From Candidatus Methylomirabilota bacterium (GTDB taxonomy: Bacteria > Methylomirabilota > Methylomirabilia > Methylomirabilales > CSP1-5): a DNA stretch of 64,000 nucleotides. Numbering within the stretch: position 1 is the first letter of the stretch; each line of letters starts with the position of its first letter. The notes beneath the pieces were generated by a model, which did not search any database, was not told the origin of the DNA, and saw only the letters and a list, made by a program, of their open reading frames with translations. This document shows, piece after piece, positions 1,618-18,921 of this stretch. A program made the translations under genes and the position numbers. The stretch is from the NCBI GenBank assembly GCA_019456075.1, contig VRUN01000002.1, positions 1,418 through 65,417 of the forward strand, in the 5' to 3' direction.

Positions 1618-1628
1618 GGAGATCCGAC

Positions 1629-3429: not shown

Positions 3430-3441
3430 GGAGACCACGAG

Positions 3442-4215: not shown

Positions 4216-4973
4216 CGATGCGATCAACCAAGCTCGAAGTTCGAGAACTCTCCAAGGTGTTTCGCACGGTCGAGGGAAGGGAGATCCTTGCCTTGAAGGA
4301 CATCAACCTCGAGGTTTTGGACGGCGAGTTGCTCTGCATCCTTGGCTCTTCGGGCTGCGGGAAGAGCACCCTCCTACGGATCGTGGCTGGCCTCGAGCAG
4401 CCCTCGGCGGGAGATGTTCTCATCAATGGGCGGCCCCTCACGGGGCCCGGCCCGGACCGTGGGATGGTTTTTCAGGAACACCTCCTCTTCCCGTGGCGAA
4501 CGGTTCGACAGAACGTCGAGTATGGACTTGAGGTGAAGGGTGGACCGAAGACGGCGCGGGCGCAGGAGTGCCTGAGCATGGTGGGGCTCGAAAATTCCAG
4601 CGAGCAGTATCCAAAGGAATTGAGCGGGGGGATGAAGCAACGGGTGGGCATTGCCAGGGCCCTGGCGAATGATCCAGCCATCCTCCTAATGGATGAGCCC
4701 TTCGCCTCGGTAGACGCCCAGACCCGGTCCGACCTGCAAGCCATGTTGTTGACGATTTGGTGGGGTACGCGGAAAACCATCCTGTTCGTGACGCACAGCG
4801 TAGAGGAAGCTGTCTATCTGGCCGACCGTGTGATTTTAATGGGAAGTGGGTCCGGGCACATCATCGATACCGTTTCGGTCGATCTGCCGCGTCCGCGGTA
4901 TCGGGTGAGCCCGGAGTTCAATGACGTGCGGCGCGATATTCTCAAGCGCCTCGGTTTTCTTACCGGGGAATAA
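4206..4973 (+). CDS. ABC transporter ATP-binding protein (sulfonate/nitrate/taurine type)
   Basis: Walker A GSSGCGKST, signature LSGGMKQR and Walker B LLMDEPF. It overlaps the permease stop, which suggests translational coupling. Confidence 0.9.
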   Translation: MALAMRSTKLEVRELSKVFRTVEGREILALKDINLEVLDGELLCILGSSGCGKSTLLRIVAGLEQPSAGDVLINGRPLTGPGPDRGMVFQEHLLFPWRTVRQNVEYGLEVKGGPKTARAQECLSMVGLENSSEQYPKELSGGMKQRVGIARALANDPAILLMDEPFASVDAQTRSDLQAMLLTIWWGTRKTILFVTHSVEEAVYLADRVILMGSGSGHIIDTVSVDLPRPRYRVSPEFNDVRRDILKRLGFLTGE

Positions 4974-5247
4974 CACCGCCCGCGAGGGCTGGGATAATGA
5001 CGATCTCATCTCCTTCGCTGAGCGGCGCGCCAAGCACTTGGGGGTCCGTAACTTCTTCGCGGTTGATGTAGATGAGGACGAATCGGTTCAATTCTCCCTG
5101 CGGGTCAAGGAGGCGTTCGTTGAAGCCAGGATATTGCTGGTTGAGGGCAGCGAGTGCCTCCCCAACAGTGGTGGCCTCGACCTGGACAGCTTCCTGCCCC
5201 GAGGTGAGACCACGAAGGATTGAGGGAATCTTAATAGTCTGGCCCAT
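4960..5247 (-). CDS. cysO: ThiS/MoaD-family sulfur-carrier protein, CysO-like, with a 4-residue tail after the Gly-Gly
   Basis: 95 aa: MGQTIKIPSILRGLTSGQ...NRFVLIYINREEV...IIPALAGG-VIPR. It is collinear with mycobacterial CysO (IPTILR..., FVNIYVNDEDV, ILPAVAGG). SD AAGGAG lies upstream. Its 3' end overlaps the convergent ABC ATPase gene by 14 nt. Confidence 0.8.
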   Translation of the reverse strand: MGQTIKIPSILRGLTSGQEAVQVEATTVGEALAALNQQYPGFNERLLDPQGELNRFVLIYINREEVTDPQVLGAPLSEGDEIVIIPALAGGVIPR

Positions 5248-5273
5248 GGTTTTTCACGTCTCCTTACCGTGCG

Positions 5274-5302
5274 AGCATACCCGGGCAGTATTGGCCGGTC
5301 AA
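5274..5302 (-). promoter_or_regulatory. Candidate sigma70-type promoter for the CysO-like gene
   Basis: On the minus strand: TTGACC (5302-5297), a 17-nt spacer, then TATGCT (5279-5274). AAGGAG and ATG 5247 follow. This is motif inspection only. Confidence 0.35.
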
Positions 5303-5411
5303 GCCCTGATCCTCTCCACACCGAGGAGAGCAAAGCCCGCAGCGTAGTGGGACGAAAGTCCGACATGAGGTCATCCAGGAGGGTTGTTGTCCATGAGTAA
5401 GGCAGGTGTGA

Positions 5412-5624
5412 GTGGGACAAAACCTCGATTTCCTCCAGCCGGGCAAGCACCTTGTTCAAGTCCATCGGTTCCGGTATGTGCGGGCCGTGACGTGCGCCTT
5501 GGGGACCATTGAACTGGTGGTGGAAGAGACCTTCTATGGAGAGAGTGTTAAGGGCGCCTTGCAAGCCTTGATCGAGAAGCTCCGGGGGCGGCGCCCACAG
5601 GAGACCTTCCTGCCCACGGCATAA
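5412..5624 (+). CDS. Small (70 aa) uncharacterised protein, paralog of the C-terminal module of ORF 1629..2297
   Basis: GTG start sits just after an in-frame TGA, with AAGG..AGG upstream. LDFLQPGKHLVQVHRFRYVRAVTCALG...LIEKLRGRRPQETFLPTA aligns with nt 2016-2294. The synonymous-substitution pattern supports + strand coding. It stops 21 nt before tauE. Confidence 0.65.
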   Translation: MGQNLDFLQPGKHLVQVHRFRYVRAVTCALGTIELVVEETFYGESVKGALQALIEKLRGRRPQETFLPTA

Positions 5625-5645
5625 GAGAGTACGCATGGAGAATTC

Positions 5646-6413
5646 ATGACGGATTCGCTGCTCGTAATTGCGTGCATCGGAATGATCTCGGGCTGGATCA
5701 CGGGTGCGTCTGCCGTAGCGTGGGGGGCGTTGAGCGTTCCGCTGCTGATTCTCGTTGGGGTTGAGCCGTTAACGGCGATCAGCTCGAGTCTCGGGGCTTC
5801 CGTTTTTCTGAGCCTGTTCGGCGGCTGGACCCATTGGCATTATGACCATTCGCGGCTAGCCCCCCTCCTGCCACTTTTGGTTGGGGGAGTAGGAGGGGCT
5901 TTCCTGGGGAGTTTCCTGAGTCCCGCACTTCCAGCGCAGACGCTTCGCGCTCTGATTGGCGCGACGACCCTGATCATAGGATTACTGATGCTTTTGCGGC
6001 GGAATGGGATCAGTGCTGAGAGTGGTGCCAAGGGGCTCATGAAATTGCGCGAGAAGCGGGCGACGATCTTTGGGATCGGGGTCATAGCCGGCTTTTTCGC
6101 CGGAGCGATCGGTGCAGGGTGGGGGACGATCGGCGTCGCTTTGCTAGTGTGGACAGGCATTCCGGCCCACACCGTCGTTGGGTCTTCGCTTTTGGCCCGG
6201 TCTCTGGTGGCCTTGGCCGCAAGCGGCTCGTATACCCTGCAGACGGGGCTTCCCCCTGTGGACGTTTTCTTACCGTTACTCGTCGCCGGGGGAGCGGGCG
6301 TGTATCTCGGGGTCCGGTCCTCGAATGGATTCTCACCCCTGACGATGCGGAAATTCATTGGGGGGGTGGTTGCGATCGTGGGGGTTGTGGCCGTAGTCGG
6401 CATTCCATGGTGA
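5646..6413 (+). CDS. tauE: TauE/SafE-family sulfite/sulfonate exporter-type membrane protein
   Basis: 255 aa and highly hydrophobic (about 7-8 TM segments). Gly-rich helices are typical of the TauE/SafE (DUF81) family. SD GGAGAA lies upstream. Confidence 0.75.
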   Translation: MTDSLLVIACIGMISGWITGASAVAWGALSVPLLILVGVEPLTAISSSLGASVFLSLFGGWTHWHYDHSRLAPLLPLLVGGVGGAFLGSFLSPALPAQTLRALIGATTLIIGLLMLLRRNGISAESGAKGLMKLREKRATIFGIGVIAGFFAGAIGAGWGTIGVALLVWTGIPAHTVVGSSLLARSLVALAASGSYTLQTGLPPVDVFLPLLVAGGAGVYLGVRSSNGFSPLTMRKFIGGVVAIVGVVAVVGIPW

Positions 6414-6584
6414 GGTCGGAAGTTCCTCGCTCTGAGCAGTCGGTGGGAATGGGGAAACACCGACAGGGCGGATAAAGGATGCAATGGGGGGAGGAAAAGG
6501 CTTTCGAGCTCAAGACGGGTGTCGGTGAGTGCGCCGTGTAAGGGGACTACCGTCGGGACGGGATCCGAAGAAGAGGTGCAACAG

Positions 6585-7517
6585 ATGGGATTTCAGGGTT
6601 TAACGGTGGCGGTCACGGGGAGCCGGAGAGCCTCGGAGCAGGCCGAGCTGATCTCGAAGCTCGGTGGGGTCCCATACGTGGCCCCGACCGTCGGCATTGA
6701 AGTCCAAGACGAGGCGGACTTTCAAACGGAAGGGTTGGTCCACAAGATTGTTGGAAGAGAATTTGATTATGCCGTCTTCATGACAGGTCCCGGTGTCTAT
6801 CGCTTGATATCGACAGCTCAGAAGCTGGGATTAGAGGGCGAACTGGTCGAGGTGTTGAATCGTATCTTTGTGGTTGCACGGAGTCACAAGCCGCAGAAGG
6901 TTCTGGAGAGATATGAGGTTCGGGTGGACTTGGTGCCATCTGACAATACCTCGGAGGGAATCGCTGCAGAGATGGCCAACCTTGACCTCCAGGGCAAGGG
7001 CGTCGCCATTCTGTGGTATGGCGAGTCGCAGACGGTTCTCCGGGAAACCTTAGAGCGAGGCGGGGCAAAAGTCTTCGAGGCGATGGCCTACATGTACTCA
7101 CTGGAGCTCAAGGAAAGGGGGGCCGAGGTCCTTGCGGCGGTCGGCTTCAAATCCATACCTCCCGAGAACCGAAAGATCCTGCAGCTCATCGATGATCTCA
7201 TAAAAAGGAAGATTCACATCATTACCTTTACGAGTCCTCCGTCGGCCAGAAACCTCTTCCGGTTTGCGGAAGCGCACGGCCTGGACGGGGACCTGCGTCG
7301 ATGCCTGAATGAAGACATTCTCGTCGTCGCTGTAGGGCCGCCGACGCGGCGGGCTATTGAGGAAAGCGGCGTCGCCGCCGATGTGATGCCTGACGTCTAC
7401 AAGTTGGGACCCATGATGCGAGCCGCGATTGATTATCTGATTCGCGATCTCTCCCGGACTCCGAAAAGGGCTCTTGGGAAGGTGGAGATCGGGACCGAAG
7501 GAGACGAGCGTGGATGA
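6585..7517 (+). CDS. hemD: Uroporphyrinogen-III synthase (HemD)-like protein
   Basis: ORF 6519..7517; likely start is ATG 6585 after GAGGTG. It has HEM4-like repeats (LTVAVTGSRR..., IHIITFTSPPSARNLF, LVVAVGPPTRRAIEE). Context is the siroheme and sulfite reductase genes. Confidence 0.6.
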   Translation: MGFQGLTVAVTGSRRASEQAELISKLGGVPYVAPTVGIEVQDEADFQTEGLVHKIVGREFDYAVFMTGPGVYRLISTAQKLGLEGELVEVLNRIFVVARSHKPQKVLERYEVRVDLVPSDNTSEGIAAEMANLDLQGKGVAILWYGESQTVLRETLERGGAKVFEAMAYMYSLELKERGAEVLAAVGFKSIPPENRKILQLIDDLIKRKIHIITFTSPPSARNLFRFAEAHGLDGDLRRCLNEDILVVAVGPPTRRAIEESGVAADVMPDVYKLGPMMRAAIDYLIRDLSRTPKRALGKVEIGTEGDERG

Positions 7518-7637
7518 GGCACCATTCCAAGTATAAGTCAAGGTCTACTCGCACGTGGTGTGGGGGGTCTTCGAGCTATCGGGGGTGTGCTGGTCACCAG
7601 AGACTGCCCAAAGTAAGAAATTCACGCTGGTGGAGAT

Positions 7638-9482
7638 ATGGAAGAGATCAATCCAAATCTGAGAACACCCTTGGAGGAACTTTCCAAGCTAGAGCGCGCC
7701 AAGCTTGACTCCAACGGAATCCGCGGAAATCTCTTTCAGGATTTCCGGGATACTTCTGTGGCCGATGTTGCGTGGGAGTCCGAACAGCTCGCCAAATCCC
7801 ACGGCATTTATCTTGAATGGAATCGGGCCAAGACAGGCAAAGAAAAAGAATGGATGTACATGATCAGGATCAGTATTCCTGGTGGAGGTCCCATCACACG
7901 AGAACAATGGATGGTGTTTGACGAGTTATCGGAGCGGTTCACCGTCAACCCTGAGGGCAGTCCGTCGTTGCGGATTACCACCAGGCAAAACATCCAGTTC
8001 CATTGGGTGAAGAAAGCGCATGTTCTTGAGGTTGTGCGGGGGGTCGCTGAATCCGGATTTTACAGTGTGAATGGATGTGGAGACAACGTCAGAAATGTCA
8101 TGGGATGCCCCGTTTCTCGCTTCTCGAAAGTTTATGACGCCAATGCCTGGGCGCAAAAAGCTGGGAAATATTTCAGGCTTCCCACCGCAGCCTTCATTGA
8201 AATCTTTGCGATAGACCCGAACTATTTACGGGATCCAGAGGAGCGATTCCAGTACGGTCCCAATTTGTTAAACCGAAAATTTAAGATCGGCTTTTCGGCG
8301 ACACACTTTGATGAGGAAAAAGGGACGTATGTTCCGGATAATTGTGTGGAACTCCGCACAAATGACATCGGCGTCGCGCCGATTGTGGAAGATGGCAATG
8401 TCAGGCGATTCCAGGTGTTTATTGGGGGGAGCCAAGGAGAAAGGAACGGGAAGCCCACGTTTTCTGCGATGGGAGAACCCTTTTGCATCGTGACAGAGAG
8501 CGAATTATTAAAAGTCCTGGATGGAATCGTGCAGGTGCATCAGGAGTGGGGTGACCGTCAAAACCGTCACTGGGCTCGAATGAAATATGTCCTAAGAAAG
8601 CAAGGAATGGAGTGGTTCCGAGTACAAGTTCGTCAGGTCAGCGGCTGCGATTTTGAAATGCCCGACCCGGATCATGATTACGGGAACAGGCATCTGCATC
8701 ACGGTTGGATGGTCCAGCCGTCCGATGGACGGCTGTCCTACGGGGCCTTTATCGAGAACGGACGGATCGTCGACGGCCCGAATGGAAGACTCAAAGCCAT
8801 GGTCCGGTACGTCATGCATAAATATCCCGTTCAGCTGATGACGACTCCTAATCAGGATATCTTGTTCACGAATATCCCACCAGGCGTCGAGTCGGAATTT
8901 GAGCCCTACTTGAGAAGTTTTGGGTACGGCATGCGACACGGACGGCGCTACTCGCGGCTTCGCCTGCTGTCCGGTGCCTGCGTCGGAAGAGATACCTGCC
9001 AGCTTACGTATACGGATGCTGAAAAATTTGAACCCTCTTTGATTGACGAATTAGAGCAGAAATGGGGGGAGATGGCCGAGTCCATCGGCGTCACCGGGTG
9101 TGAACGGCAATGTTTTCGCCCTGCAACAAAGACCATTGGCTGGGTTGGAATGGGTCTAGACAGGTACCAGCTCAAATTGGGCGGGACCGAGGACGGGAGA
9201 CATCAAGGGGAGCCACTGATTGATCGAGAGACGGGTGAGATGTACCTGCGGAGTGTCCCGCGAGAAGAGGTGGGCACGGTCAGCGATGTGCTCTTTGAAT
9301 TCTATAGTGCAAATAGATTACCGGGCGAAGGGATGGGATATTTTCATCAACGAATCGGCAGGGAGCTGATCATTAAGCATCTGAAAGAGAACCCGAGAAC
9401 AGCCCAACTGATGAAAACCACCTTTAAGAGCCCGCGGAGCCGAAAGGGGGATGTGCATGGAGACCAAGAGTCAACTGGATGA
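7638..9482 (+). CDS. sir: Assimilatory sulfite reductase hemoprotein (siroheme/[4Fe-4S], ferredoxin-type Sir/NirA family)
   Basis: 614 aa. N-terminus has LERAKLDSNGIRGNLFQDF, followed by NIR_SIR repeats. Cluster Cys motifs are SGACVGRDTC and TGCERQCFRP. It sits next to cysH, sat and cobA. Confidence 0.8.
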   Translation: MEEINPNLRTPLEELSKLERAKLDSNGIRGNLFQDFRDTSVADVAWESEQLAKSHGIYLEWNRAKTGKEKEWMYMIRISIPGGGPITREQWMVFDELSERFTVNPEGSPSLRITTRQNIQFHWVKKAHVLEVVRGVAESGFYSVNGCGDNVRNVMGCPVSRFSKVYDANAWAQKAGKYFRLPTAAFIEIFAIDPNYLRDPEERFQYGPNLLNRKFKIGFSATHFDEEKGTYVPDNCVELRTNDIGVAPIVEDGNVRRFQVFIGGSQGERNGKPTFSAMGEPFCIVTESELLKVLDGIVQVHQEWGDRQNRHWARMKYVLRKQGMEWFRVQVRQVSGCDFEMPDPDHDYGNRHLHHGWMVQPSDGRLSYGAFIENGRIVDGPNGRLKAMVRYVMHKYPVQLMTTPNQDILFTNIPPGVESEFEPYLRSFGYGMRHGRRYSRLRLLSGACVGRDTCQLTYTDAEKFEPSLIDELEQKWGEMAESIGVTGCERQCFRPATKTIGWVGMGLDRYQLKLGGTEDGRHQGEPLIDRETGEMYLRSVPREEVGTVSDVLFEFYSANRLPGEGMGYFHQRIGRELIIKHLKENPRTAQLMKTTFKSPRSRKGDVHGDQESTG

Positions 9483-10209
9483 GGTGGAGGTCAAAGAACT
9501 GGCGATCCGCTTTGAAGGGGAAGATGCAGAGACGGTAATCCGATGGGTCCTCGAGCGCTTTCATCCCCGTATCGCCTTGGCGACCAGCCTCCAGGCGGAA
9601 GAGATGGTGATTTTGGATATCGCGTGGAAGACGAATCCCGGTGTGCGGGTGTTTACGCTGGATACCGGCCGGCTCCACGAAGAGACGTACATGATCATGG
9701 AGCAGATCCGAGAGAAGTACGGTATTAGCGTCGAAAGCTATTTTCCCCAGCGGCAGGCTGTGGAGGCTCTGGAACGGGAGAGGGGATTTTACTCCTTCCG
9801 GAGGAGTGTGGAGGAGCGAAAGTATTGCTGTGGCATTCGTAAGGTGGAGCCTCTTGGTCGCGCTGTGAATGGTCTCGATGCGTGGATTACCGGGCTGCGG
9901 CGGGAACAGGCGGTGACGCGAGGTATGGTTGGTAAGGTAGAAGCTGACGAGAGCCATGGAGGAATCATCAAGGTGAATCCTTTGGCTGACTGGTCGGGGG
10001 AACAGGTCTGGGACTACATCCGCGCCCACGACATTCCGTACAATGCTCTCCACGACGTGGGGTTTCCCAGCATCGGGTGTGCTCCTTGTACACGGGCCAT
10101 TAAGCCGGGGGAGGATATCCGGGCCGGACGGTGGTGGTGGGAGATGCCAGAAACCAAGGAATGTGGGCTTCACGTTACACCGGTTGAGGGGCACCGACCT
10201 ACTTCGTGA
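9451..10209 (+). CDS. cysH: Adenylylsulfate (APS) reductase, thioredoxin-dependent, Fe-S type
   Basis: PAPS_reduct fold. It carries the two extra Cys pairs diagnostic of APS- rather than PAPS-specific enzymes (YCCGIRKVEPL and SIGCAPCT) plus the C-terminal ECGLH. No APS kinase gene is present in the window. Confidence 0.85.
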   Translation: MCMETKSQLDEVEVKELAIRFEGEDAETVIRWVLERFHPRIALATSLQAEEMVILDIAWKTNPGVRVFTLDTGRLHEETYMIMEQIREKYGISVESYFPQRQAVEALERERGFYSFRRSVEERKYCCGIRKVEPLGRAVNGLDAWITGLRREQAVTRGMVGKVEADESHGGIIKVNPLADWSGEQVWDYIRAHDIPYNALHDVGFPSIGCAPCTRAIKPGEDIRAGRWWWEMPETKECGLHVTPVEGHRPTS

Positions 10210-10218
10210 GGAGGTTGG

Positions 10219-11388
10219 ATGAGCACGATCGCGCCGCATGGAGGTAGACTGATCAATCGGCTGGTCCCGCCGGAGGAGCGGGACGAGATGCGACGCCAGG
10301 CCGCGGGCTTCAGGCAGATCCACCTGAATCGGCGGCAGCTCTCGGACCTGGACTTGATCGGGATCGGAGCCCTGAGCCCACTCGAAGGATTCATGGGTCG
10401 GGGTGATTACGAACGCGTGGTGGACGAGATGCGCTTGGCCAGCGGCCTTCCATGGTCCATCCCTGTCACCTTAGCGGTAGAGGAAGGCCAGGCTGCCTCT
10501 CTGGCGGTAGGTGAACAGCTTGGTCTGGTGGATGGACATGGGGAATTGCGGGGGCTCCTCGAGCTGCAAGAAAAGTTTTCATATGACAAGAAGCGGGAGG
10601 CGCACGAGGTCTACCGAACGACTGAAGACGCCCACCCTGGGGTCCAGGCCCTGTACGCGCAGGGGGAGGTCCTCTTAGCTGGTCCGATCCGACTGCTGGA
10701 AGGGCCCCATTATTCGGCCTATGATCCGTACCATCTGACTCCCGAAGAGACCCGGCAGGCCTTCACGGACCGAGGATGGCCGACTGTCGTGGGCTTCCAA
10801 ACGCGAAACCCGGTGCACCGGGCGCACGAATACATTCAAAAGTGTGCCCTCGAGATGCTGGATGGCCTGCTCCTCCATCCCCTCGTGGGCGAAACCAAGC
10901 AGGACGACATCCCGCCGGAAACCCGAATGCGTTGTTACCAGGTCTTGCTGGACGGTTACTATCCAAAAGATCGCGTGATGCTGTCGGTCCTCCCGGCGGC
11001 CATGCGCTATGCCGGCCCTCGGGAAGCCATTTTCCACGCCCTCATTCGTAAAAACTATGGGTGTACCCATTTCATCGTCGGCCGGGATCATGCCGGGGTG
11101 GGGAACTATTATGGGACGTTCGACGCCCATACGATCTTCCGGAACTTTGCCAGAGAGGAGCTGGGGATAACCCCCCTCTTTTTTGATCATGCCTTTTATT
11201 GTCGAAGTTGCCAAGGAATGGCTACGACCAAAACCTGCCCGCACGGCCCGGAAGAGCGGGTGAGCCTGTCCGGGACCAAGGTCCGTGAGATGCTTCTCCG
11301 AGTTGAGCTCCCTCCTGCCGAGTACACCCGGCAAGAGGTAGCGCAAGTGCTCCTCCAATGGGCCAATACTGATCAATACCGAATCTGA
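10219..11388 (+). CDS. sat: Sulfate adenylyltransferase (ATP sulfurylase)
   Basis: 389 aa with motifs [12 protein letters not shown] and VGRDHAGVG, and an N-terminal PUA-like region. Confidence 0.9.
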
Positions 11389-11485
11389 CCATTCACCTTC
11401 ACGTCTCCTCGCACGCGCTGTGGCATCTATATTTGCTGGCGAGGAAGGGCACGGGATTCGGAGAGGATTTTAAGGAGGAAGAACA

Positions 11486-12586
11486 ATGGGTGGATTTCTG
11501 CTCGCGTTCCTTACCGGTGTGGCCGCCGGGCTCATCTACTCGAGGCTGGCGCGGCCGGAAAGTAAAATCCTCCGGCGACTCGCCGATCGGGTGAAAGACG
11601 CGGAGAATGGACGAGACCGTGTCCGAGCAGGGAACGGCTGGGGCGTTCCCTTCTGGAGGTCGCGTAACACTTCAACGAAGAGTGACAGTCCAAGGCGGCG
11701 TCCGACGCGCGAGACCGGATTTTTCAATATGGGGGATCTGGAAGGTCCACGGTCGGACCGCTTGGGACGGGTCTATCTCGTCGGGGCGGGACCGGGCGAG
11801 CCCGGCCTTTTGACCCTGAAAGGGAAACGCTGCCTCGAAGAGGCGGATGTGGTCGTCTACGATTATCTTGTAAACGAATCCCTCCTGACGTACAGCCGGC
11901 CTGAGGCCGAACGAGTTCATGTGGGGAAGCCAGGATCGGACCAGAGGTTGTCCCAGGAGGACATCAATCGCCTCTTGATCGAGCGCGCTCGCGAGGGGAA
12001 TGTGGTCGTCCGTCTCAAAGGGGGGGACCCGTTCATCTTCAGCCGGGGGGGCGAGGAGGCCGAGGCATTTGCCGAGGCAGGAGTTGCTTTCGAGGTCGTG
12101 CCGGGGGTCACCTCGGCCATCGCGGCCCCGAGCTACGCCGGGATTCCTCTCACGCACCGGCGCCTTGCCTCCACGGTGGTGTTTGTGACCGGGCATGAGG
12201 ACCCGACGAAGGAGGACTCTGGGGTTGACTGGAAGGGCGTCGCCCGGATGGGAACGGTAGTGTTTCTCATGGGAGTCGGCCGGCTGTCCCAGATTGTGGC
12301 CAGGCTTGTTGAGGAGGGGCGCGAACCGGAAACTCCCGTCGCCGTCATCCGATGGGGGACGGTCGCCCGGCAAAAAACCGTCACAGGGACCCTGCAGGAT
12401 ATTCGGGAAAAGGCGCGGGGGATGGGCTCGCCCGCCGTCATCGTCATCGGAGAGGTGGTAAACCTTCGGCACCGCCTCAGGTGGTTTGAGGAAGCGGTGG
12501 TCGGTCGAGAGACCATTGTGACCCGAGCGCGCGAGTACGAGACCGCCCTTGCCACGTCGGACCCGGAATCTCACCTGGGCTTGTGA
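11486..12586 (+). CDS. cobA: Uroporphyrin-III C-methyltransferase (SUMT) with about 80-aa N-terminal extension containing a hydrophobic helix
   Basis: The SUMT core starts at VYLVGAGPGEPGLLTLKG, followed by GGDPFIF. A strong SD (AAGGAGG, 7 nt, ATG 11486) favours the long form. An alternative ATG at 11729 lacks an SD. Confidence 0.8.
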   Translation: MGGFLLAFLTGVAAGLIYSRLARPESKILRRLADRVKDAENGRDRVRAGNGWGVPFWRSRNTSTKSDSPRRRPTRETGFFNMGDLEGPRSDRLGRVYLVGAGPGEPGLLTLKGKRCLEEADVVVYDYLVNESLLTYSRPEAERVHVGKPGSDQRLSQEDINRLLIERAREGNVVVRLKGGDPFIFSRGGEEAEAFAEAGVAFEVVPGVTSAIAAPSYAGIPLTHRRLASTVVFVTGHEDPTKEDSGVDWKGVARMGTVVFLMGVGRLSQIVARLVEEGREPETPVAVIRWGTVARQKTVTGTLQDIREKARGMGSPAVIVIGEVVNLRHRLRWFEEAVVGRETIVTRAREYETALATSDPESHLGL

Positions 12587-12639
12587 GAATGAGAGATTTT
12601 AGCTACAATGTATCCGTGCTTTGCAGGCTGGAGGCAGCA

Positions 12640-12879
12640 GTGGCGAAAAGACGGGTGCACCTGACGTTTCCCGGAAGGCTCAAAGACGAGCCACTCCTGT
12701 GGCAGGTATGTCAGCGGTTCGATCTCGTGTTCAACATTCGCCGGGCTGATTACACCGAAGGGCTCGGGTGGCTGATGGCGGAATTGGAGGGAGATGAAGA
12801 GAGGCTACAGAGTGGCATACAATGGCTAGAAGAGCAGGGGGTACAGGTAGCCCCCATAGAACAGGACGTTGTCCAGTGA
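12640..12879 (+). CDS. Free-standing NIL-domain protein (copy 1)
   Basis: ORF 12583..12879; likely start is GTG 12640 after GGAGG. VAKRRVHLTFPGRLKDEPLLWQVCQRFDLVFNIRRADY...ELEGDEERLQSGIQWLEEQGVQV resembles the NIL domain at the C-terminus of MetN. Confidence 0.7.
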   Translation: MAKRRVHLTFPGRLKDEPLLWQVCQRFDLVFNIRRADYTEGLGWLMAELEGDEERLQSGIQWLEEQGVQVAPIEQDVVQ

Positions 12880-12888
12880 GCTTTTTGC

Positions 12889-12917
12889 TTGACAGCATCA
12901 GAGACTTTTGCTGTTAT
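12889..12917 (+). promoter_or_regulatory. Candidate sigma70-type promoter driving the SAM riboswitch leader
   Basis: TTGACA (12889-94), a 17-nt spacer, then TGTTAT (12912-17), about 25 nt upstream of riboswitch helix P1. Confidence 0.4.
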
Positions 12918-12943
12918 TGCGTCCTAATTGAATAGGACTTCGC

Positions 12944-13070
12944 TTCTCATCAAGAGCGGCTGAGGGACTGGCCCTACGAAGCCGCGGCAACGGTCCCGCC
13001 GAAGAAGTCGGCGGGAAAAAGTGCCAACTCCTGCACCCTGTTCTCGCACGTTGGGGTGAAAGATGAGGAG
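12944..13070 (+). promoter_or_regulatory. SAM-I (S-box) riboswitch aptamer
   Basis: P1 is CUUCUCAUC paired with GAUGAGGAG. Conserved cores occur in canonical order: AAGAG, GGCUGAGGGACUGGCCC, ACGAAGCCGCGGCAAC, GUGCCAA, CUCCUGCA, GAAAGAUGAG. This matches the B. subtilis yitJ-type consensus as I remember it. Confidence 0.9.
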
Positions 13071-13095
13071 GGAGAATGCGCAGTACTCAAGCAGA

Positions 13096-13124
13096 CCCCT
13101 TCTCATAAGGAGAAGGGGTTTTTT
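13096..13124 (+). terminator. Intrinsic terminator (riboswitch expression platform)
   Basis: CCCCTTCT(C) ataag (G)AGAAGGGG is a perfect 8-9 bp stem followed by TTTTTT. It lies 26 nt after P1 and 20 nt before ATG 13144. Confidence 0.8.
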
Positions 13125-13143
13125 CTTGGGGCGTTGAACAGTT

Positions 13144-13377
13144 ATGGGAACGCGGCGGTTATCTCTCACGTATCCCTCCCACCTCATCAAGGAGCCGGTG
13201 ATCTACACGGTGGCGAGGGAGTACAACCTGGTACCCAACATCCGAAAGGCCCGGATTACGGATACGACTGGCGAGGTTATTGTGGACCTTCAGGGGCAAG
13301 AGGAGGATCTGGATAAAGGCGTTGCCTACCTCACACGTCTCGGCATCACGGTTGAGGAGGTTCGGCAGGGACCGTAA
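13144..13377 (+). CDS. Free-standing NIL-domain protein (copy 2)
   Basis: 77 aa: MGTRRLSLTYPSHLIKEPVIYTVAREYNLVPNIRKARI...DLQGQEEDLDKGVAYLTRLGITVEEV. It is paralogous to 12640..12879 and NIL-like. Confidence 0.75.
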   Translation: MGTRRLSLTYPSHLIKEPVIYTVAREYNLVPNIRKARITDTTGEVIVDLQGQEEDLDKGVAYLTRLGITVEEVRQGP

Positions 13378-13416
13378 CGAGGTCCGACCCATAAGTATCG
13401 GGCTCAGGAGGGTTCG

Positions 13417-14706
13417 ATGGCGAAAGTGAAGGGGCTGAAATGTCGGGAGTGTGGCCGCCCCTATCCGGCGAAGCCGCTCCATGTCTGTGAGTTCTGCTTT
13501 GGGCCGCTCGAGGTTGACTACGACTATTCCAGTCTACAAAAGGTCGTCAATCGGAAGCGGATCGAGGCTGGCCCGCCAACCATGTGGCGATATCACGACT
13601 TGCTTCCAATTGAGGAGGATGTTCCTGTAGGAAAACATTGTGGCATGACCCCCCTGATCCGGGCGAGACAGCTGGCAAAGGCGCTCGGGGCCAAGGAAGT
13701 CTACATCAAAAATGACGCGGTCTGCCACCCGTCCCTTTCCTTTAAGGACCGAGTCGTGGCAGTCGCCGTGGCCAAGGCAATGGAGTTTGGTTTTGAAGTC
13801 GTCTCGTGCGCTTCGACGGGGAACCTCGCCAACTCGGTCGCCGCCCATGCGGCAGAAGCGGGGCTCAAGAGCTTTATCTTCGTCCCGGCTGACCTGGAGC
13901 AGGGGAAGATCGTTGGGACCCTTATCTACGGCCCGGTTCTGGTGGCGGTCGATGGGAACTACGATGAAGTCAACCGCCTGTGCAGTGAGGTGGCTGACAA
14001 ATACGGTTGGGCCTTTGTGAACATCAATATCCGGCCTTACTACGCAGAGGGTTCGAAAACCTTCGGCTACGAGATTGCCGAACAGTTGGGCTGGCGTGCG
14101 CCCCAACACATCATCGTTCCCTCCGCCGGTGGTTCTCTCGTCACGAAAATTTGGAAGGGGCTGAAGGAGTTGCACCAGTTGGAAGTCATCCCAGAGTGTC
14201 ATACCCGGATGCATGTGGCACAAGCGGCGGGATGCAGTCCCATTGTGACGGCCATTCGCAATGGGACCGACACCATACGGCCCGTACGGCCCGACACGAT
14301 TTGCAAGTCCCTCGCGATCGGCAACCCGGCAGATGGATACTACGCCTTCAAGACCGTTGAAGAAAGTAAAGGGTACGCCGCAGACGCGAGCGATGAAGAA
14401 ATTGTTGCTGCGATGAAACTCCTCGCCACGACGGAGGGTATCTTTACGGAGACCGCGGGCGGAGTTACGGTGGCTGCGGCCAAGCGGCTGATTGAGACGG
14501 GGGTTATTCCCCGGGACGAGAGCATTGTGCTTTCCATAACCGGAAATGGACTCAAGACACAGGAGGTCGTCTTCAACGCCCTCGGGCCAACCCTTTCCAT
14601 CAAGCCGACATTGAGGTCCTTTGACGAGGCTATCGCGGAGAGGCCGGATATCGGGGCCGATGTCGTTTCCAGGTCACCAGCCACCCCTCAGGAGTCATTG
14701 GGATAA
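13417..14706 (+). CDS. Threonine-synthase-family PLP enzyme with N-terminal zinc ribbon; candidate sulfur-carrier-dependent homocysteine synthase
   Basis: 429 aa. Zn ribbon is CRECG...CEFC. PLP lysine motif is HPSLSFKDR, with a GNLANS loop. It is followed 14 nt later by a CysO-like carrier gene and lies behind a SAM-I riboswitch. Confidence 0.8.
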
Positions 14707-14720
14707 TTGTGGAGGAAACC

Positions 14721-14996
14721 ATGAGCGTCCTCGTCCGGATTCCGACACCGCTGCGGAGCCTGACTCAGGGGCAAGCCGAGGTTCAGGGAGAAGGGAGCTC
14801 TGTTCAGGAACTCATTGAGAATCTCGAGGTGCATTACAAGGGCTTGAAAGAACGGCTCTACGAGGGAAAAGACATCCGCCGCTTCATTAATGTCTATGTG
14901 AATGATGAGGACATCCGGTTCCTTCAAGGAACGGCGACCCCGCTGAAGGCGGGAGATCAAGTCTCCATCGTCCCTGCCATTGCCGGAGGGAGGTAG
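14721..14996 (+). CDS. ThiS/MoaD-family sulfur-carrier protein, CysO-like, with Gly-Gly followed by one Arg
   Basis: ORF 14709..14996; likely start is ATG 14721 after [23 protein letters not shown]...[13 protein letters not shown]...IVPAIAGG-R is very close to the CysO pattern. Confidence 0.8.
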
Positions 14997-15162
14997 TTCG
15001 GCTTCTTGCAAGGGAAGGAAACTCTCTTGACATCTGTTCTCCCTTTCCGGCATCTTTGTTTTCGGCACACAGGTTTTCGAGGATAACACGATTTCGAGAT
15101 CCCCTAGGCAAACCACTGGTGTGGGTGTGGTGCCTTGCTGAAAGGCTTTGGAGGGGGACATA

Positions 15163-15960
15163 ATGCGCATCGTCGTGTGTCTGAAGCAAATCATCGATCC
15201 GGAGCTTCCCGCCACTCAGTTCCGGATTGATGCCGAGTCGAAACGGCAGCAGTCGGATAACCATCCCCTCGTCATTAGCCCCTATGACGAGAATGCGCTT
15301 GAGCTGGCGCTGAAGCTCAAAGAGCAGACCGGAGGCCATGTCACGCTGCTGAGCGTCGGGCAGCCTTCGGCGGTCAGCGCACTGCGGAAAGGGCTGGCCA
15401 TGGGGGCGGACGAAGCCGCCTTGATCACTGACCCTGCCATCGAAGGGTCCGATGCGTTTGGTGTTGCCACCGCGTTGGCGCGGGGGATAGAGAAACTCGG
15501 CCATGCGGACTTGGTCCTGTGCGGCTGTGAGTCCGGGGATTGGGCTGACAGGATAGTGGGCCCCATCTTGGCGGAAACGCTGCACATCCCGTGTGTGACG
15601 TTCATTGCCCGGCTCGAAAAGCACAATGGTGGATTTCTGGCCCATCGCGTCGTTGAGGACGGCTACGAGCTCTGGGAGGTCGTGCCACCCGTGCTGCTCA
15701 CCATTCTCAGTGATGAGACCAATACCCCCAGGTATCCCAAGGTCAAGGACATCATGGCGGCTTCCCGGAAATCCATTCCCACATGGTCTGGGGCCGACCT
15801 GGATCTCGACGCTTCACGTATCGGCAAAGCAGCCGTGCGAGCTGAAGTCCAAGAGCTCACGGTTCCGACACAAGAGTCTCGCTGTCAGCTTCTGGAAGGG
15901 GAGCCGGAGGAACAAGTTGCGATGTTGGTCGCAAGACTCCGAGAGCGTAAGGTGATTTGA
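15163..15960 (+). CDS. etfB: Electron transfer flavoprotein beta subunit
   Basis: ORF 15148..15960; start is ATG 15163 after GGAGGGGG. It has an MRIVVCLKQ... ETF-beta N-terminus and an ETF fold. Confidence 0.9.
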   Translation: MRIVVCLKQIIDPELPATQFRIDAESKRQQSDNHPLVISPYDENALELALKLKEQTGGHVTLLSVGQPSAVSALRKGLAMGADEAALITDPAIEGSDAFGVATALARGIEKLGHADLVLCGCESGDWADRIVGPILAETLHIPCVTFIARLEKHNGGFLAHRVVEDGYELWEVVPPVLLTILSDETNTPRYPKVKDIMAASRKSIPTWSGADLDLDASRIGKAAVRAEVQELTVPTQESRCQLLEGEPEEQVAMLVARLRERKVI

Positions 15961-15963
15961 GCC

Positions 15964-16944
15964 ATGGCTGGCATCTTGGTGCTTGCGAAGATCGAGAACG
16001 GGGTCCCTTCCCGCTCTACTCTTGAACTGCTAGGCGCTGCCCATAGGCTCGCTACGGGACTTCAAGAACCTGTGTGTGCCGGCCTGCTTGGTCAGGGGGA
16101 TGCGGGTGTCCTGTACAGCTATGGGGTGGAAATCGTCTATCGGATGGATCATCCCCTCCTGAAAGAGTATCAGGCTGATCTTCATTTGCGTGCGTTGGAG
16201 CAGATTGCCCAGGCGGCTGAACCTCGAGTTATGCTCCTGTCCGGAGACTCCATGGGTCGAGACCTTGCCGCTCGCCTTGCGTTTCGTCTGCAGGCAGGAA
16301 TCGTCACGGACGTCATCGATATCGACGTACAGGCCTCGGAAAAAGCTCCGCGCTTTATGCGTCCGGCTTACGGCGGGAAGGCCATTGCCGTCATGGCTCC
16401 ACGGGTCGTTCCGATCGTGGCGACCTTGAAACCGCGAACCTTTGACATGGCTGCATCAGTGGGGGAGGGACACGGGAGAGAGGTTCCGGTGGAGGCTCCC
16501 CTCGATCCCGGACAGGCTCGAACGCGGCTCGTCGAGCGGGTGCAGGAGGAGACTACGGGCGTCAAGCTGGAGGATGCTCGAGTGGTGGTCTCCGGGGGGA
16601 GAGGCCTTGGAGGACCTGATGGGTTTAGCCTCCTGGTGGAGTTGGCCCGCGTGCTCAAGGGAGCGGTGGGAGCGTCGCGAGCGGCCACCGATGCCGGATG
16701 GGTTCCCTCTTCGATGCAGGTGGGGCAGACCGGAAAAACGGTCAGTCCCGATCTTTACATTGCTGTTGGGATTTCTGGTGCCACCCAGCATGTGGCGGGA
16801 ATCTCAGGTGCAAAGACCATTGTGGCAATCAATACCGATCCCGAGTCCTCCATCTTCAAGGTGGCTCACCTGGGGATCGTGGGGGATTACAAGACCATTC
16901 TCCCGCCATTGAGCGCTAAGTGTCGCGAGTTGATGGGTGGGTGA
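15964..16944 (+). CDS. etfA: Electron transfer flavoprotein alpha subunit
   Basis: 326 aa with C-terminal FAD signature [30 protein letters not shown]...IF. Confidence 0.9.
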
Positions 16945-16947
16945 GGC

Positions 16948-18921
16948 ATGAATCAAGTACCTGCGCGAGAGATCTACTGGAACATTCCAAACCACCTGCT
17001 CCTGTATGTCCTGTTTCTTCCCTTCCTTGCCGTTTTCCTCTACGGCTGCTATCGCGTCTGGGGTGCCATTTTGCTGGGCAAGAGGGGGGGGCAGTTTGGT
17101 CAGCTGAAAGAGCGCCTGAAGGCCCTCGCCAACCAGGCCCTCTTGCAGCGGCGGATCGCCACAGAGCGATATTCAGGTGTGATGCACCTCACCCTCTCCT
17201 GGGGATTTCTCATCCTTTTCGTCGCCACCACCCTCGTTGCGCTTCAAGATTACTTTGGCCTTCCGGTGCTTGAGGGCCCGTTCTATCTCTACTTTATGTC
17301 CTTGACTGTAGACCTGTTTGGTGTGGCGGCCGTCCTGGGAACGGTGATGGCGATCACGCGGCGGTACGTTCGTCCTCCGCCCCGTCTCGTGGAGCCCCGG
17401 GAGTTTAATGGTTTTGGTTGGCTCCTTTTCCTTTTCTTGGCTGTTCTCCTGACCGGCTTCCTCGTCGAGGGACTGCGGATTGGGGCGACTGCCGATCCGT
17501 GGGGATCCTGGTCGCCCGGCGGTTGGCTTACGGCGCTCCTGTTCCGCGGAGTCGGGGTAGAGTATGCCGAGGCTTTTCATCAGGTGCTCTGGTGGGCACA
17601 TGCTGTACTTTCCTTTGCCTTTATCGCTGCCATTCCGTATACGGGCGTGTTCCATCTCCTGTCGGCCCCTGTCAACATCGTTCTCCAAAACCTGCAACCG
17701 TCAGGCGTGCTAAACCCCTTGGCGATCGAAGAGGAGCAACTCGGCGCATCGACGATTCGGGATTTCTCCCGGAAAGCGCTCTTGGATCTGTACGCGTGCA
17801 CCGAGTGTGGACGGTGTCAGGACGTCTGTCCTGCCTGGACGACGGGGAAACCGCTTACACCGAAGGGGGTCATTCTCGATCTTCGGGACCATTTGACCAA
17901 AGTCCACCGCGGAGAGGAGGCGCGGCGAATGGTTCGGGAGGTAATCACCGAAGATGTCCTCTGGGCCTGTACGACGTGTGGGGCGTGTCATGAAGCCTGT
18001 CCGGTCTTGATCGAGCCCATTCCCAAGATCATTGACATGCGCCGCCACCTGGTGATGGAAGAGGCGACGTTTCCAGAGCAGCTACAGGAGACGCTCAGGA
18101 ATCTAGAGACACGTGGGCACCCGTATAAAGGGGTGAGCGCCGGCCGAACCGACTGGGCTAAAGATCTTCGGATTGCGGAAGCGAGTAAGCTGCAAGAAAT
18201 CGATCTGCTGTACTGGGTGGGGTGTGCTGGTGCCTTTGATGAGCGGGGGCAGCAGGTCACGCGGGCCATGGTACAGGTCCTAGAAGAGGCGGGGGTGGAG
18301 TTCGCGATCCTGGGCCCGGAAGAGCGCTGCACCGGAGATCCGGCCAGGCGAATTGGAAACGAGTACCTTTTCCAACTTCTCGCGCAAGAGAATATCGCGA
18401 CGTTGAATCGGTACCGGGTGAAGAAAATTTTAACAACCTGCCCTCACTGTTTCAACACGATGAAACACGAGTATCCCCAGTTCGGCGGGGACTTCGAGGT
18501 CACTCATCATAGCCAGTTGATTGCCGAACTCCTGCGCGACGGACGTTTGAGCCTTCGGAAACGGTTTAGCGGGACCGTGAGCTTTCATGATCCGTGCTAT
18601 CTCGGGCGACATAATGGGATCTACGATGATCCCCGATCGATTATTAATCACTTTCCGGGTTTCCGACAGGTGGAGATGCCCCGATGTCGTGAGAAAGCGT
18701 TCTGCTGTGGTGCGGGCGGCGGACTCATGTGGATGGAGGAGCGGATCGGCAAGCGAATGAATCTCGAAAGAACGGATGAGTTCTTAAAGACCGAAGCGGC
18801 GGTCGTGGCCACTGCTTGCCCCTTCTGCCTCACGATGATGACCGACGGAATCACCGTGCGCGGGAAGAGCCAGTCGGTAAAGGCTTTGGATTTAGCTGAG
18901 CTGGTGGCCCGTGCCCTTTGA
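16948..18921 (+). CDS. Membrane-bound Fe-S oxidoreductase (N-terminal multi-TM domain, 2x[4Fe-4S] ferredoxin, two CCG/HdrD-GlpC-like domains); probable ETF:quinone-linked
   Basis: About 6 hydrophobic segments in the first 270 aa. Ferredoxin motifs are [12 protein letters not shown] and [12 protein letters not shown]. Cys-rich CCG regions include CPHCF and CCGAGGG. It lies directly downstream of etfBA, as in syntroph-type ETF-associated oxidoreductases. Confidence 0.75.

Follow-up and report, generated by a model that had tools for sequence, protein, structure and literature searches.

Organisation of the operon and its SAM-I riboswitch

The DNA analysed here, called the window, is a stretch of 64,000 nucleotides from an NC10/Methylomirabilales bacterium. 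On its forward strand, a SAM-I riboswitch is followed by three tightly packed genes that encode, in this order, a small NIL-domain protein (NIL-B), a ThrC-family enzyme of 429 residues and a ThiS-like carrier. The promoter, the S-box, the terminator and the three packed genes had been described in a sequence-only reading of the region, and this observation was confirmed with Rfam, Pfam and the sequence itself. Two features did not appear in that description, a NIL paralog (NIL-A) located before the -35 box and a gene for a JAMM peptidase at positions 272-670.

The promoter (12889-12917, forward strand) has the positions that had been assigned to it, with the -35 box TTGACA at 12889-12894, the -10 box TGTTAT at 12912-12917 and a spacer of 17 nt that contains a TG. 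A generic sigma-70 scan did not call it because the -10 box has no A at position 2. When 8 related loci were compared, the -35 box (CTTGACAG), the TG two bases 5' of the -10 box and the T...AT of the -10 box were invariant, and this conservation sets the promoter apart from a chance match.

The aptamer (12944-13069, forward strand) was tested against the Rfam model RF00162. It scored 84.9 bits (E = 1.2e-18) against a gathering score of 44.4 and covered the whole model (1-108 of 108), which bears out the S-box. The leader folded with -95.5 kcal/mol (z = -4.6 compared to shuffles). Folding and a terminator scan placed an intrinsic terminator at 13093-13124 on the forward strand, where a hairpin (13093-13121) precedes a T-run. 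Its core stem of 9 bp (CCCCTTCTC/GAGAAGGGG) with T6 agrees with the 8-9 bp that had been read; in the scan the stem extends to 12 pairs. In the antiterminator (13063-13107, forward strand), AUGAGGAGGG at 13063-13072 shares bases with the P1 3' strand and pairs with CCCUUCUCAU at 13098-13107, the terminator's 5' arm. For a nascent transcript ending at 13108 this was the fold of minimum free energy, and the duplex energy was -17.2 kcal/mol. The terminator and antiterminator helices of this expression platform are mutually exclusive, with the P1 3' strand in common.

The arrangement suggests how the operon would be controlled. The conserved promoter at 12889-12917 would initiate transcription. 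At high SAM levels, the ligand would bind to the aptamer and lock helix P1, so that the terminator at 13093-13124 forms and transcription stops 5' of nilB. At low SAM levels, the P1 3' strand would instead pair with the terminator's 5' arm, and the polymerase would read through.

The ThrC-family enzyme and its relatives

The second gene of the operon (13417-14706, forward strand) encodes a protein with a PALP domain (E = 2.4e-67), in which the PLP lysine K110 lies within an invariant SFKDR motif. The N-terminal ribbon of four cysteines (C9, C12, C24 and C27) was matched by the Pfam model 'NinF'. The protein is thus the ThrC-family PLP enzyme with an N-terminal ribbon that had been recognised from the sequence.

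Whether the enzyme groups with the threonine synthases was analysed with bit scores and a neighbour-joining tree. Against the window enzyme, 124 MetM-like proteins reached 418 bits or more, and 20 co-located second paralogs no more than 207 bits. Against the ThrC of Bacillus subtilis (PDB 6cgq) the order was reversed, with no more than 206 bits for the MetM-like proteins and 407 bits or more for the second paralogs. The window enzyme itself scored 194 bits to B. subtilis ThrC. The MetM-like sequences were monophyletic in the tree, and the four-cysteine ribbon was present throughout their clade and in none of the ThrC proteins. The clade also has its own substitutions at T88/S89, S155, N157 and R160 (B. 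subtilis numbering), which are given here as a description only; a literature search on the phosphate-site residues of ThrC found nothing. In 20 loci a genuine thrC gene stands beside the MetM-like gene, and clusters elsewhere combine the MetM-like gene with those for ThrC, homoserine dehydrogenase, HomK (TIGR02535) and aspartokinase. The bimodal scores, the monophyletic clade and the loci with both genes support the earlier view that the enzyme is not an orthodox threonine synthase, and support its assignment as a MetM-like, predicted carrier-thiocarboxylate-dependent homocysteine synthase.

A genome scan with the window enzyme was evaluated for the best 80 loci, which had 55-67% identity; no Streptomyces locus was among these 80. 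A protein search seeded with a Micromonosporaceae homolog returned only Micromonosporaceae among the matches listed. The Micromonosporaceae homologs serve as the actinobacterial reference, and the link of the window enzyme to the MetM of Streptomyces albulus runs via homologs. Identity to the window enzyme is about 58% for cyanobacterial homologs and 49% for Micromonosporaceae homologs under SAM-I control; for the cyanobacterial homologs, 51.6% identity to S. albulus MetM has been reported (PMC12172450). The same source reports that a cyanobacterial homolog gave no clear homocysteine synthesis in vitro. A SAM-I element was found directly 5' of the MetM-like gene in 22 of the best 80 loci, and also in two Micromonosporaceae genomes, Actinoplanes (72.7 bits) and Micromonospora (69.2 bits).

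The MetO-like carrier and the sulfur island

The third gene (14721-14996, forward strand) begins 15 nt downstream of the MetM-like gene. It encodes a MetO-like sulfur carrier of 91 residues with the ThiS/MoaD beta-grasp domain (PF02597, E = 1.1e-18) and a C-terminus of ...PAIAGG followed by one arginine, just as the CysO-like protein ending AGG-R had been described. At least 67 of the best 80 loci have a MetO-like gene adjoining the MetM-like gene.

Several genes of the window could serve the carrier. The JAMM/MPN metallopeptidase (Mec-like, Prok-JAB; 272-670, forward strand) matched PF14464 with E = 1.9e-25 and contains the HSHTHTEAYPSKTD motif. The NCBIfam desampylase-like model gave 83 bits, which is below the cutoff. 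The gene as read from the ATG at 272 had a match in the protein look-up. The peptidase is a candidate for two steps, the removal of the residues that follow the GG in the carriers and the release of the carrier-bound amino acid. Two rhodanese-domain proteins follow on the forward strand at 775-1617 (PF00581, E = 2.3e-32) and 1629-2297 (PF00581, E = 7.2e-14) and are candidate persulfide donors for the thiocarboxylation of the carrier. An extra ThiS/MoaD-like carrier (4960-5247, reverse strand; PF02597, E = 2e-13) ends in AGG-VIPR and is 40% identical to MetO. Genes for assimilatory sulfate reduction were found on the forward strand: sulfite reductase (7638-9482, NIR_SIR), PAPS/APS reductase (9451-10209, PAPS_reduct), ATP sulfurylase (10219-11388, ATP-sulfurylase) and, belonging to the same set, uroporphyrin methylase (11486-12586, TP_methylase), all assigned with Pfam.

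Upstream of the window, the same contigs encode Rrf2, CysK, a fusion of ThiS with a MoeB/MoeZ-like E1, a CysO-like carrier and a CysM-like enzyme. Of these, the E1 fusion is about 1.3 kb away from the start of the window. All four carrier modules have residues after the GG. The type of the MetO tail (GG or GG plus further residues) did not correlate with the presence of NIL.

Two NIL proteins flank the riboswitch

NIL-A (12583-12879, forward strand; PF09383, E = 2.8e-16) is the last gene before the riboswitch and ends 9 nt before the -35 box. It has 98 residues when read from the GTG at 12583, or 79 residues from the ATG at 12640 (public contigs, L001-L004). NIL-B (13144-13377, forward strand; PF09383, E = 1.5e-15), with 77 residues, is the first gene of the SAM-controlled operon, where a NIL-domain protein had been described. 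Both scored 57-60 bits to PF09383 (cutoff 24), and the two paralogs are 36% identical.

The AlphaFold2 model of NIL-B had a pLDDT of 92.6. It superimposed on the C2 (NIL) domain of E. coli MetNI (3tui, 3dhw) with a TM-score of 0.86-0.88 and an rmsd of 1.0-1.4 Å. A PDB search with the single NIL-B sequence returned only noise; the profile search succeeded. In the ungapped profile alignment, the invariant N32 of the NIL proteins corresponds to N295 of E. coli MetN, and the N295A mutation of MetN abolishes the binding of L-Met (PMC6233128). No conserved cysteine was found among the 31 aligned NIL homologs.

The neighbourhood of the NIL genes was counted with HMM scans of the collected loci and a metagenome scan; these superseded a first word-indexed search that had returned only NC10 relatives. 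NIL adjoins MetM/MetO in 33 of the best 80 loci, in several phyla and with variable gene order. In a scan centred on NIL, MetO was present in 27 and MetM in 25 of the 31 long loci. The layout with NIL-A, the SAM-I element and then NIL-B, MetM and MetO is kept in 15 further loci. Two loci with neighbouring ThiF and JAMM genes (L007 and L021) encode fusions in which the GG of MetO is followed by a linker and a C-terminal NIL, and double-NIL proteins occur in two others (L029 and L031). No NIL was found next to MetM/MetO in the cyanobacterial (0/22) and Nitrospinota (0/6) loci, and NIL is therefore not obligatory. A typing of the NIL proteins as A or B across phyla was dropped, as the types are distinct only in NC10-like lineages and single NILs elsewhere are intermediate.

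A literature search for work connecting the NIL domain to sulfur carriers, to the S-box or to MetM-dependent methionine biosynthesis found nothing. The earlier statement that NIL stands outside the described system is in line with GapMind 2026, where MetO, Mec, MoeZ and MetM are listed as the components and the word NIL does not occur.

Discussion

Our analysis points to a SAM-repressed nilB-metM-metO operon that would make homocysteine by a protein-thiocarboxylate route, and we assign this reading a probability of about 0.8. By analogy with the Streptomyces system, the JAMM peptidase (272-670) would trim the terminal arginine off MetO, and the ThiS-MoeB/MoeZ-type E1 would then adenylate the carrier. 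Sulfur would be transferred to MetO, probably via the rhodaneses, to give MetO-COSH. MetM, as a PLP enzyme derived from threonine synthase, would use MetO-COSH and O-phosphohomoserine for the synthesis of homocysteine, which the carrier would finally let go.

The core of this pathway, including the SAM riboswitch, is already known because MetM/MetO and the riboswitch were published for Streptomyces albulus in 2024, and NIL is likely to be the new part. The sequence-only reading had named a route with a ThrC homolog and a sulfur carrier, and did so correctly: the MetM/MetO route from O-phosphohomoserine to homocysteine is that of Hasebe et al. 2024 (Appl Environ Microbiol 90:e01247-24), as summarised in GapMind 2026 and in PMC12172450, the latter of which also places a SAM riboswitch upstream of S. 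albulus metM. That reading had also called the operon a SAM-repressed variant. The SAM-I control of the operon stands, but SAM repression alone does not make a variant since riboswitch control was already reported for the Streptomyces genes.

In S. albulus, a ThrC-homologous PLP enzyme works with a ThiS-like GG carrier as here, a SAM riboswitch lies upstream of metM, and the pathway depends on a JAMM peptidase and an E1, both of which are encoded in the sulfur island of the window organism. The present system belongs to a different phylum (NC10), its E1 has no fused rhodanese but an N-terminal ThiS domain, and its operon starts with a NIL gene, with a second NIL gene directly before the riboswitch, whereas NIL is absent from the GapMind 2026 component list. 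The CysO-CysM-Mec-MoeZ system of Mycobacterium tuberculosis is similar in that a carrier thiocarboxylate is used by a PLP enzyme on an O-phospho amino acid and a JAMM protein releases the product. The island has a homologous set of genes in its upstream part, but the PLP enzyme of the window operon is of the ThrC family and would convert O-phosphohomoserine to homocysteine. A carrier thiocarboxylate for homocysteine is also found in the HcyS/HcyD/HcyF/MetY system of Wolinella succinogenes, which is mentioned in PMC5764234. There too, a C-terminal extension of the carrier is removed by a metalloprotease. MetY acts with O-acetylhomoserine, and the window operon has no MetY.

Two other functions of the enzyme were considered. 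It could be an ordinary threonine synthase, with unrelated ThiS-like and NIL genes and a riboswitch that tunes threonine synthesis to SAM. This would fit with the NCBIfam thrC model (TIGR00260), which gave 281 bits at a cutoff of 167, with the best solved relatives, which are threonine synthases (E ~1e-57), and with the name threonine synthase in public annotations. The clear split of the bit scores from orthodox ThrC, the true thrC genes in the same clusters at 20 loci, the monophyletic clade with its own substitutions and the near-universal adjoining GG carrier make it extremely unlikely. In addition, an OFF switch that cuts threonine synthase at high SAM has no obvious metabolic sense; in plants, threonine synthase is activated by SAM. 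Alternatively, the enzyme and the carrier could make a different sulfur compound, such as cysteine from O-phosphoserine in the manner of mycobacterial CysM/CysO, or a thio-cofactor or natural-product precursor. The CysO-like and CysM-like genes within the same island would be in line with this, and cysteine-related genes are sometimes under S-box control. We regard such a product as very unlikely because the island already has dedicated cysteine genes (CysK, CysM-like, CysO-like) and the enzyme belongs to the ThrC family, which uses O-phosphohomoserine, and not to the CysK/M family. The enzymes in the clusters elsewhere are those around O-phosphohomoserine, and methionine genes are the typical targets of SAM-I.

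For NIL, a sulfur-relay or redox component has a precedent in the NIL-ferredoxin (MA1822, DvMF_0262) of the DUF39 pathway, which methanogens and Desulfovibrio require to make homocysteine (PMC5764234), and some homologs carry the JGI label 'L-aspartate semialdehyde sulfurtransferase ferredoxin'. Both NILs are genetically tied to homocysteine synthesis, but a relay function is most improbable here: the NIL proteins of 75-98 residues are single-domain proteins with neither a fused 4Fe-4S ferredoxin nor a conserved cysteine, and a DUF39 partner gene was not found in the annotated window. The routes also differ, as the DUF39 pathway starts from aspartate semialdehyde and the present one would start from O-phosphohomoserine. 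NIL could instead be mainly a structural adaptor or chaperone that senses no small molecule, and either docks MetO on MetM, the E1 or the JAMM peptidase or shields its C-terminus. The position of NIL directly after the GG in the MetO-NIL fusions speaks for it, and so does the MetO-NIL pair, which is the tightest gene pair and is present even where MetM is not adjacent (L100, L107, L116 and L126). The invariant asparagine equivalent to the ligand-binding N295 of MetN and the cyanobacterial and Nitrospinota pathways without an adjacent NIL speak against it, and we consider a mainly structural role unlikely.

We rather propose that NIL is a methionine- or homocysteine-binding accessory subunit of the MetM/MetO pathway. 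As in MetN C2, the fold and the asparagine occur in a methionine-related context, but the window NILs are stand-alone proteins of 77-98 residues and the MetN domain is the tail of an ABC ATPase. The proposals for ligand and partners are based only on homology, fusions and gene neighbourhood. NIL-A and NIL-B would be small ACT-like domains that dimerise, bind an amino acid of the methionine or homocysteine type and associate with MetO and MetM. They may act in post-translational feedback, or in product handling, where the routes from O-phosphohomoserine to threonine and to methionine diverge. A more specific version is possible, though we hold it only tentatively: stand-alone NILs would be an unrecognised, widespread pathway subunit, present here as a NIL-A/NIL-B heterodimer of which one half is expressed independently of SAM and the other half is SAM-repressed. 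The dimer would dock onto MetO and MetM and determine how much O-phosphohomoserine goes to threonine and how much to methionine, as a post-translational layer over the riboswitch. In some lineages a MetO-GG-NIL precursor would require cleavage by the JAMM peptidase, like a ubiquitin fusion.

If NIL senses methionine or homocysteine, this would add a new case of ACT-like feedback, in which a protein-thiocarboxylate pathway is controlled at the O-phosphohomoserine branch point, and would link the three contexts of NIL, namely the MetN transporter, the DUF39 pathway and MetM/MetO. The MetM/MetO route, present in NC10, Chloroflexota, Planctomycetota, Verrucomicrobiota, Nitrospirota and other phyla, fills an old gap in the methionine biosynthesis of many uncultured phyla. 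In public annotation the MetM-like enzyme is everywhere still called threonine synthase, and the recurrent NIL together with the frequent SAM-I control provides concrete markers for re-annotation and for the prediction of auxotrophy.

Operon and riboswitch of the sulfur island

A full-length SAM-I riboswitch was found at 12944-13069 on the forward strand (RF00162, 84.9 bits, E = 1.2e-18), well above the gathering score of 44.4, and is the sole riboswitch that Rfam detects in the 64-kb window. An intrinsic terminator is located at 13093-13121 (+), where a stem of 12 pairs, with a GC-rich core of 9 bp (CCCCUUCUC/GAGAAGGGG), precedes a T-run. The S-box aptamer and the terminator of the sequence-only reading were therefore borne out. 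The leader folds with -95.5 kcal/mol (z = -4.6 vs shuffled sequence). The promoter proposed in the same reading is present as stated at 12889-12917 (+): TTGACA (12889-12894) and TGTTAT (12912-12917) are separated by 17 nt. It was rejected by a generic sigma-70 scan, since its -10 box has no A at position 2. When 8 related loci were aligned, the -35 box (CTTGACAG), a TG two bases 5' of the -10 box and the T...AT of the -10 box were invariant; with this conservation the element has the appearance of a genuine promoter of the extended -10 type.

The switching was computed for the nascent transcript to 13108, in which the 3' arm of the terminator is not yet made. In the minimum-free-energy structure, 13063-13072 (AUGAGGAGGG) pairs with 13098-13107 (CCCUUCUCAU) in an antiterminator duplex of -17.2 kcal/mol that replaces helix P1. 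The former strand overlaps the 3' strand of P1, and the latter belongs to the terminator, as its 5' arm. On these computed structures, and with SAM dependence taken from membership in the family, the expression platform follows classical S-box logic: bound SAM would stabilise P1 and block the antiterminator, and the terminator would halt transcription before nilB.

The three tightly packed genes described earlier, for a NIL protein, a ThrC-family enzyme with a Zn ribbon and a CysO-like carrier, were all found on the forward strand. They encode NIL-B (13144-13377, 77 aa; PF09383, E = 1.5e-15), the MetM-like enzyme (13417-14706, 429 aa; PALP domain, E = 2.4e-67, with a 4-Cys ribbon N-terminal to it) and the MetO-like carrier (14721-14996, 91 aa; ThiS family, E = 1.1e-18; C-terminus PAIAGG-R). 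Good Shine-Dalgarno sequences precede the starts of MetM (AGGAGGG) and MetO (GGAGGA). Near-identical proteins occur in NC10/Methylomirabilales metagenome-assembled genomes. A second NIL gene, NIL-A, was identified by its domain match at 12583/12640-12879 (+), and its stop codon is 9 nt 5' of the -35 box.

The operon is the end of a sulfur island of ~25 kb that lies nearly all on one strand. Its part upstream of the window was read from public copies of the same contigs, e.g. GCA_036444095.1. Directly 5' of window position 1 and on the same strand as the operon, the public contig L087 has a second carrier system (6236-9965) with an Rrf2 regulator, CysK (TIGR01139, 433 bits), a 363-aa protein in which a ThiS domain is fused to a MoeB/MoeZ-type E1 (internal ...AIAGG-AIPF), a CysO-like and a CysM-like gene. 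The 3' end of the latter is window 1-236 and a JAMM/Prok-JAB peptidase gene comes next (272-670, +); together these genes resemble the mycobacterial CysO/CysM/Mec set. Domain matches further identified two rhodaneses (775-2297, +), an extra ThiS/MoaD-like protein, ThiS2 (4960-5247, -; C-terminus AGG-VIPR), with an ABC transporter between them, and sulfite reductase, PAPS reductase, ATP sulfurylase and uroporphyrin methylase (7638-12586, +), preceded by TauE and HemD. The ThiS2 gene and the ABC ATPase gene (4206-4973) overlap by 14 nt at the 3' end of the latter, and public gene calls differ on whether it or a forward-strand ORF is real.

Since the JAMM peptidase, the rhodaneses and the ThiS-E1 fusion are found in or just 5' of the window, genes for activating a carrier thiocarboxylate are present in the island. 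The E1 for MetO is probably supplied by the upstream ThiS::MoeB/MoeZ-type fusion. All four carrier modules of the island have residues beyond the Gly-Gly (MetO GG-R, ThiS2 GG-VIPR, CysO-like GG-G and the E1 fusion), which fits a need for a JAMM peptidase.

Directly 3' of metO are genes for ETF beta and alpha and a 657-aa membrane Fe-S/CCG-domain oxidoreductase (15148-18921, +), for which no evident link to the operon was seen. A stand-alone homocysteine S-methyltransferase-domain protein (PF02574, 306 aa; 25374-26294, +) is encoded after a cluster for methylmalonyl-CoA mutase, MeaB and CoA-transferase. This protein may catalyse the last step to methionine; no riboswitch was found 5' of its gene. 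The sole tRNA in the window is tRNA-Arg(CCU) at 63649-63725 (-).

The MetM-like enzyme and threonine synthase

The species-representative genomes were scanned with a family alignment. The best 80 loci, with 55-67% identity, came from Methylomirabilota, Chloroflexota, Cyanobacteriota, Planctomycetota, Verrucomicrobiota, Nitrospinota, Nitrospirota, Desulfobacterota, Acidobacteriota and Aquificota. Among these 80, a MetO-like ThiS gene was directly 3' of the MetM-like gene in at least 67, a ThiF-type E1 was adjacent in 13 and a SAM-I element was immediately 5' in 22, as counted with a covariance model built on four Rfam-verified aptamers. In 20 loci the same cluster contained a second ThrC-like gene of ~362 aa.

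The bit scores were cleanly bimodal. The MetM-like proteins (n = 124) scored at least 418 bits to the window enzyme and at most 206 to B. subtilis ThrC (6cgq), whereas the second paralogs (n = 20) scored at most 207 and at least 407, respectively. Placed on a neighbour-joining tree of the ThrC family, the MetM-like set was monophyletic. Compared with ThrC, the Cys4 ribbon (C9, C12, C24, C27) was confined to this set, and 35 positions differed, each conserved within its own clade. Among the substitutions from ThrC (B. subtilis numbering) to MetM-like were T88/S89 to L137/A138, S155 to N204, N157 to R206, R160 to Y209 and W248 to G307. Several of these ThrC residues presumably hold the substrate phosphate, which we take as a lead only. 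On the bimodal scores, the monophyly, the ribbon and the clade-specific positions the 429-aa enzyme is not an orthodox threonine synthase. In relatives it coexists with an orthodox ThrC, and its clade is SAM-regulated and linked to a carrier, in agreement with the sequence-only reading.

The NCBIfam model NF006050 (PRK08197, 'threonine synthase') gave 298 bits on the MetM-like protein (13417-14706), with the Cys4 ribbon covered, against just 191 bits for a true ThrC (5447-6535 of locus L103); the model is probably one of the MetM clade that has been misnamed. Homologs from Actinoplanes and Micromonospora, 49% identical to the window enzyme, have SAM-I in front (72.7 and 69.2 bits, Rfam). Here ~10 nt separate the end of the aptamer (L085 6852-6991 and L086 6855-6990, respectively) from the start codon of the MetM-like gene, and no carrier or NIL gene adjoins, which suggests that control is translational and metO unlinked.

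The MetM/MetO pathway was published by Hasebe et al. 2024 (Appl Environ Microbiol 90:e01247-24), so the core reading of a ThrC homolog that makes homocysteine with a carrier was correct and already in the literature. GapMind 2026 gives the steps as MetO, Mec, MoeZ and MetM, calls MetM 'often misannotated' as threonine synthase and names HomK as an alternative homoserine kinase producing O-phosphohomoserine. PMC12172450 reports a SAM riboswitch upstream of S. albulus metM and homologs in cyanobacteria, one of them without clear homocysteine synthesis in vitro. We put the probability that the operon belongs to this published pathway at about 80%; orthology of the window enzyme to the characterised S. 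albulus MetM is putative and rests on indirect evidence. As in the published system, the carrier would be activated by the JAMM peptidase, an E1 and a rhodanese, and O-phosphohomoserine and MetO-COSH would yield homocysteine.

NIL proteins in MetM/MetO clusters

In 33 of the best 80 genome loci, a NIL gene is next to MetM/MetO. By phylum, it was present in 19 of 27 sampled loci of Chloroflexota, 4 of 6 of Planctomycetota, 3 of 7 of Verrucomicrobiota and both of Nitrospirota, and in none of 22 of Cyanobacteriota and 6 of Nitrospinota; NIL is dispensable in some phyla. The gene order varied (NIL-MetM-MetO, MetM-NIL-MetO and MetM-MetO-NIL), which argues for selection on co-expression and not inherited synteny. 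A metagenome scan with the NIL motif gave 80 loci, and the 31 of at least 8 kb were used for neighbour counts: 27 had a MetO-like gene, 25 a MetM-like gene and 11 a true thrC too. The window's own layout, NIL-A/SAM-I/NIL-B-MetM-MetO, recurs in 15 further loci. With NIL-A upstream and NIL-B downstream of the riboswitch, this conserved pair suggests one SAM-independent and one SAM-repressed partner.

Two other layouts were recurrent. In MetM-MetO-NIL-ThrC (L103-L106, L115, L124, L125, L131, L138, L143, L145, L149-L151, L153, L154, L161, L167; also L012 and L013), the genes for the MetM-like enzyme and for an orthodox threonine synthase, two users of O-phosphohomoserine, share what appears to be one operon. 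The other has homoserine dehydrogenase, TusA-like, ThiF, JAMM, MetO, NIL, HomK (TIGR02535, 569 bits) and aspartokinase genes (L100, L107, L116, L126, about 1300-8000), and no MetM was found within 5 kb of these clusters. In L113 and L165, NIL lies between ThiF and HomK, without an adjacent carrier.

NIL is also fused to the carrier. Proteins of 171 aa (L007 7288-7803) and 176 aa (L021 3326-3856), flanked by ThiF and JAMM genes, read ...IPAIAGG and continue into a linker and NIL. As the GG is internal, the carrier would have to be cleaved free, implying a processing like that of ubiquitin fusions. In or near MetM/MetO clusters, proteins of 177 aa (L029 2139-2672) and 183 aa (L031 10481-11032) carry a tandem pair of NIL domains, which is consistent with a dimeric NIL.

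The AlphaFold2 model of NIL-B (pLDDT 92.6) is a beta-alpha-beta-beta-alpha-beta domain, and its best structural matches were to the C2 domain of E. coli MetN (TM-score 0.86-0.88, rmsd 1.0-1.4 Å). In a profile alignment the family-invariant N32 aligned ungapped to N295 of MetN, where N295A lowers L-methionine binding to undetectable (PMC6233128). A persulfide or Fe-S role, as for the NIL-ferredoxin of the DUF39 pathway, is made less likely by the lack of any conserved cysteine in the aligned NIL family. We tentatively propose, at somewhat less than even odds, that NIL binds a Met/Hcy-type ligand through a dimer like that of the MetN C2 domains, for which the double-NIL proteins and the A/B pair speak, and that it associates with MetO and MetM and would serve in feedback or in handling of the product where the pathway branches at O-phosphohomoserine. 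The main alternative is a NIL that serves as an adaptor independently of any ligand.

No publication connecting NIL domains with sulfur carriers, S-box regulons or MetM turned up in a literature search, and NIL appears to be a new part of the pathway. In conclusion, the core pathway is known, with this operon as a new member, and it is the NIL component that makes the operon distinct, through its two paralogs on either side of the riboswitch, its carrier fusions and the retained asparagine equivalent to the methionine-binding residue of MetN. This conserved component is worth a focused experiment.
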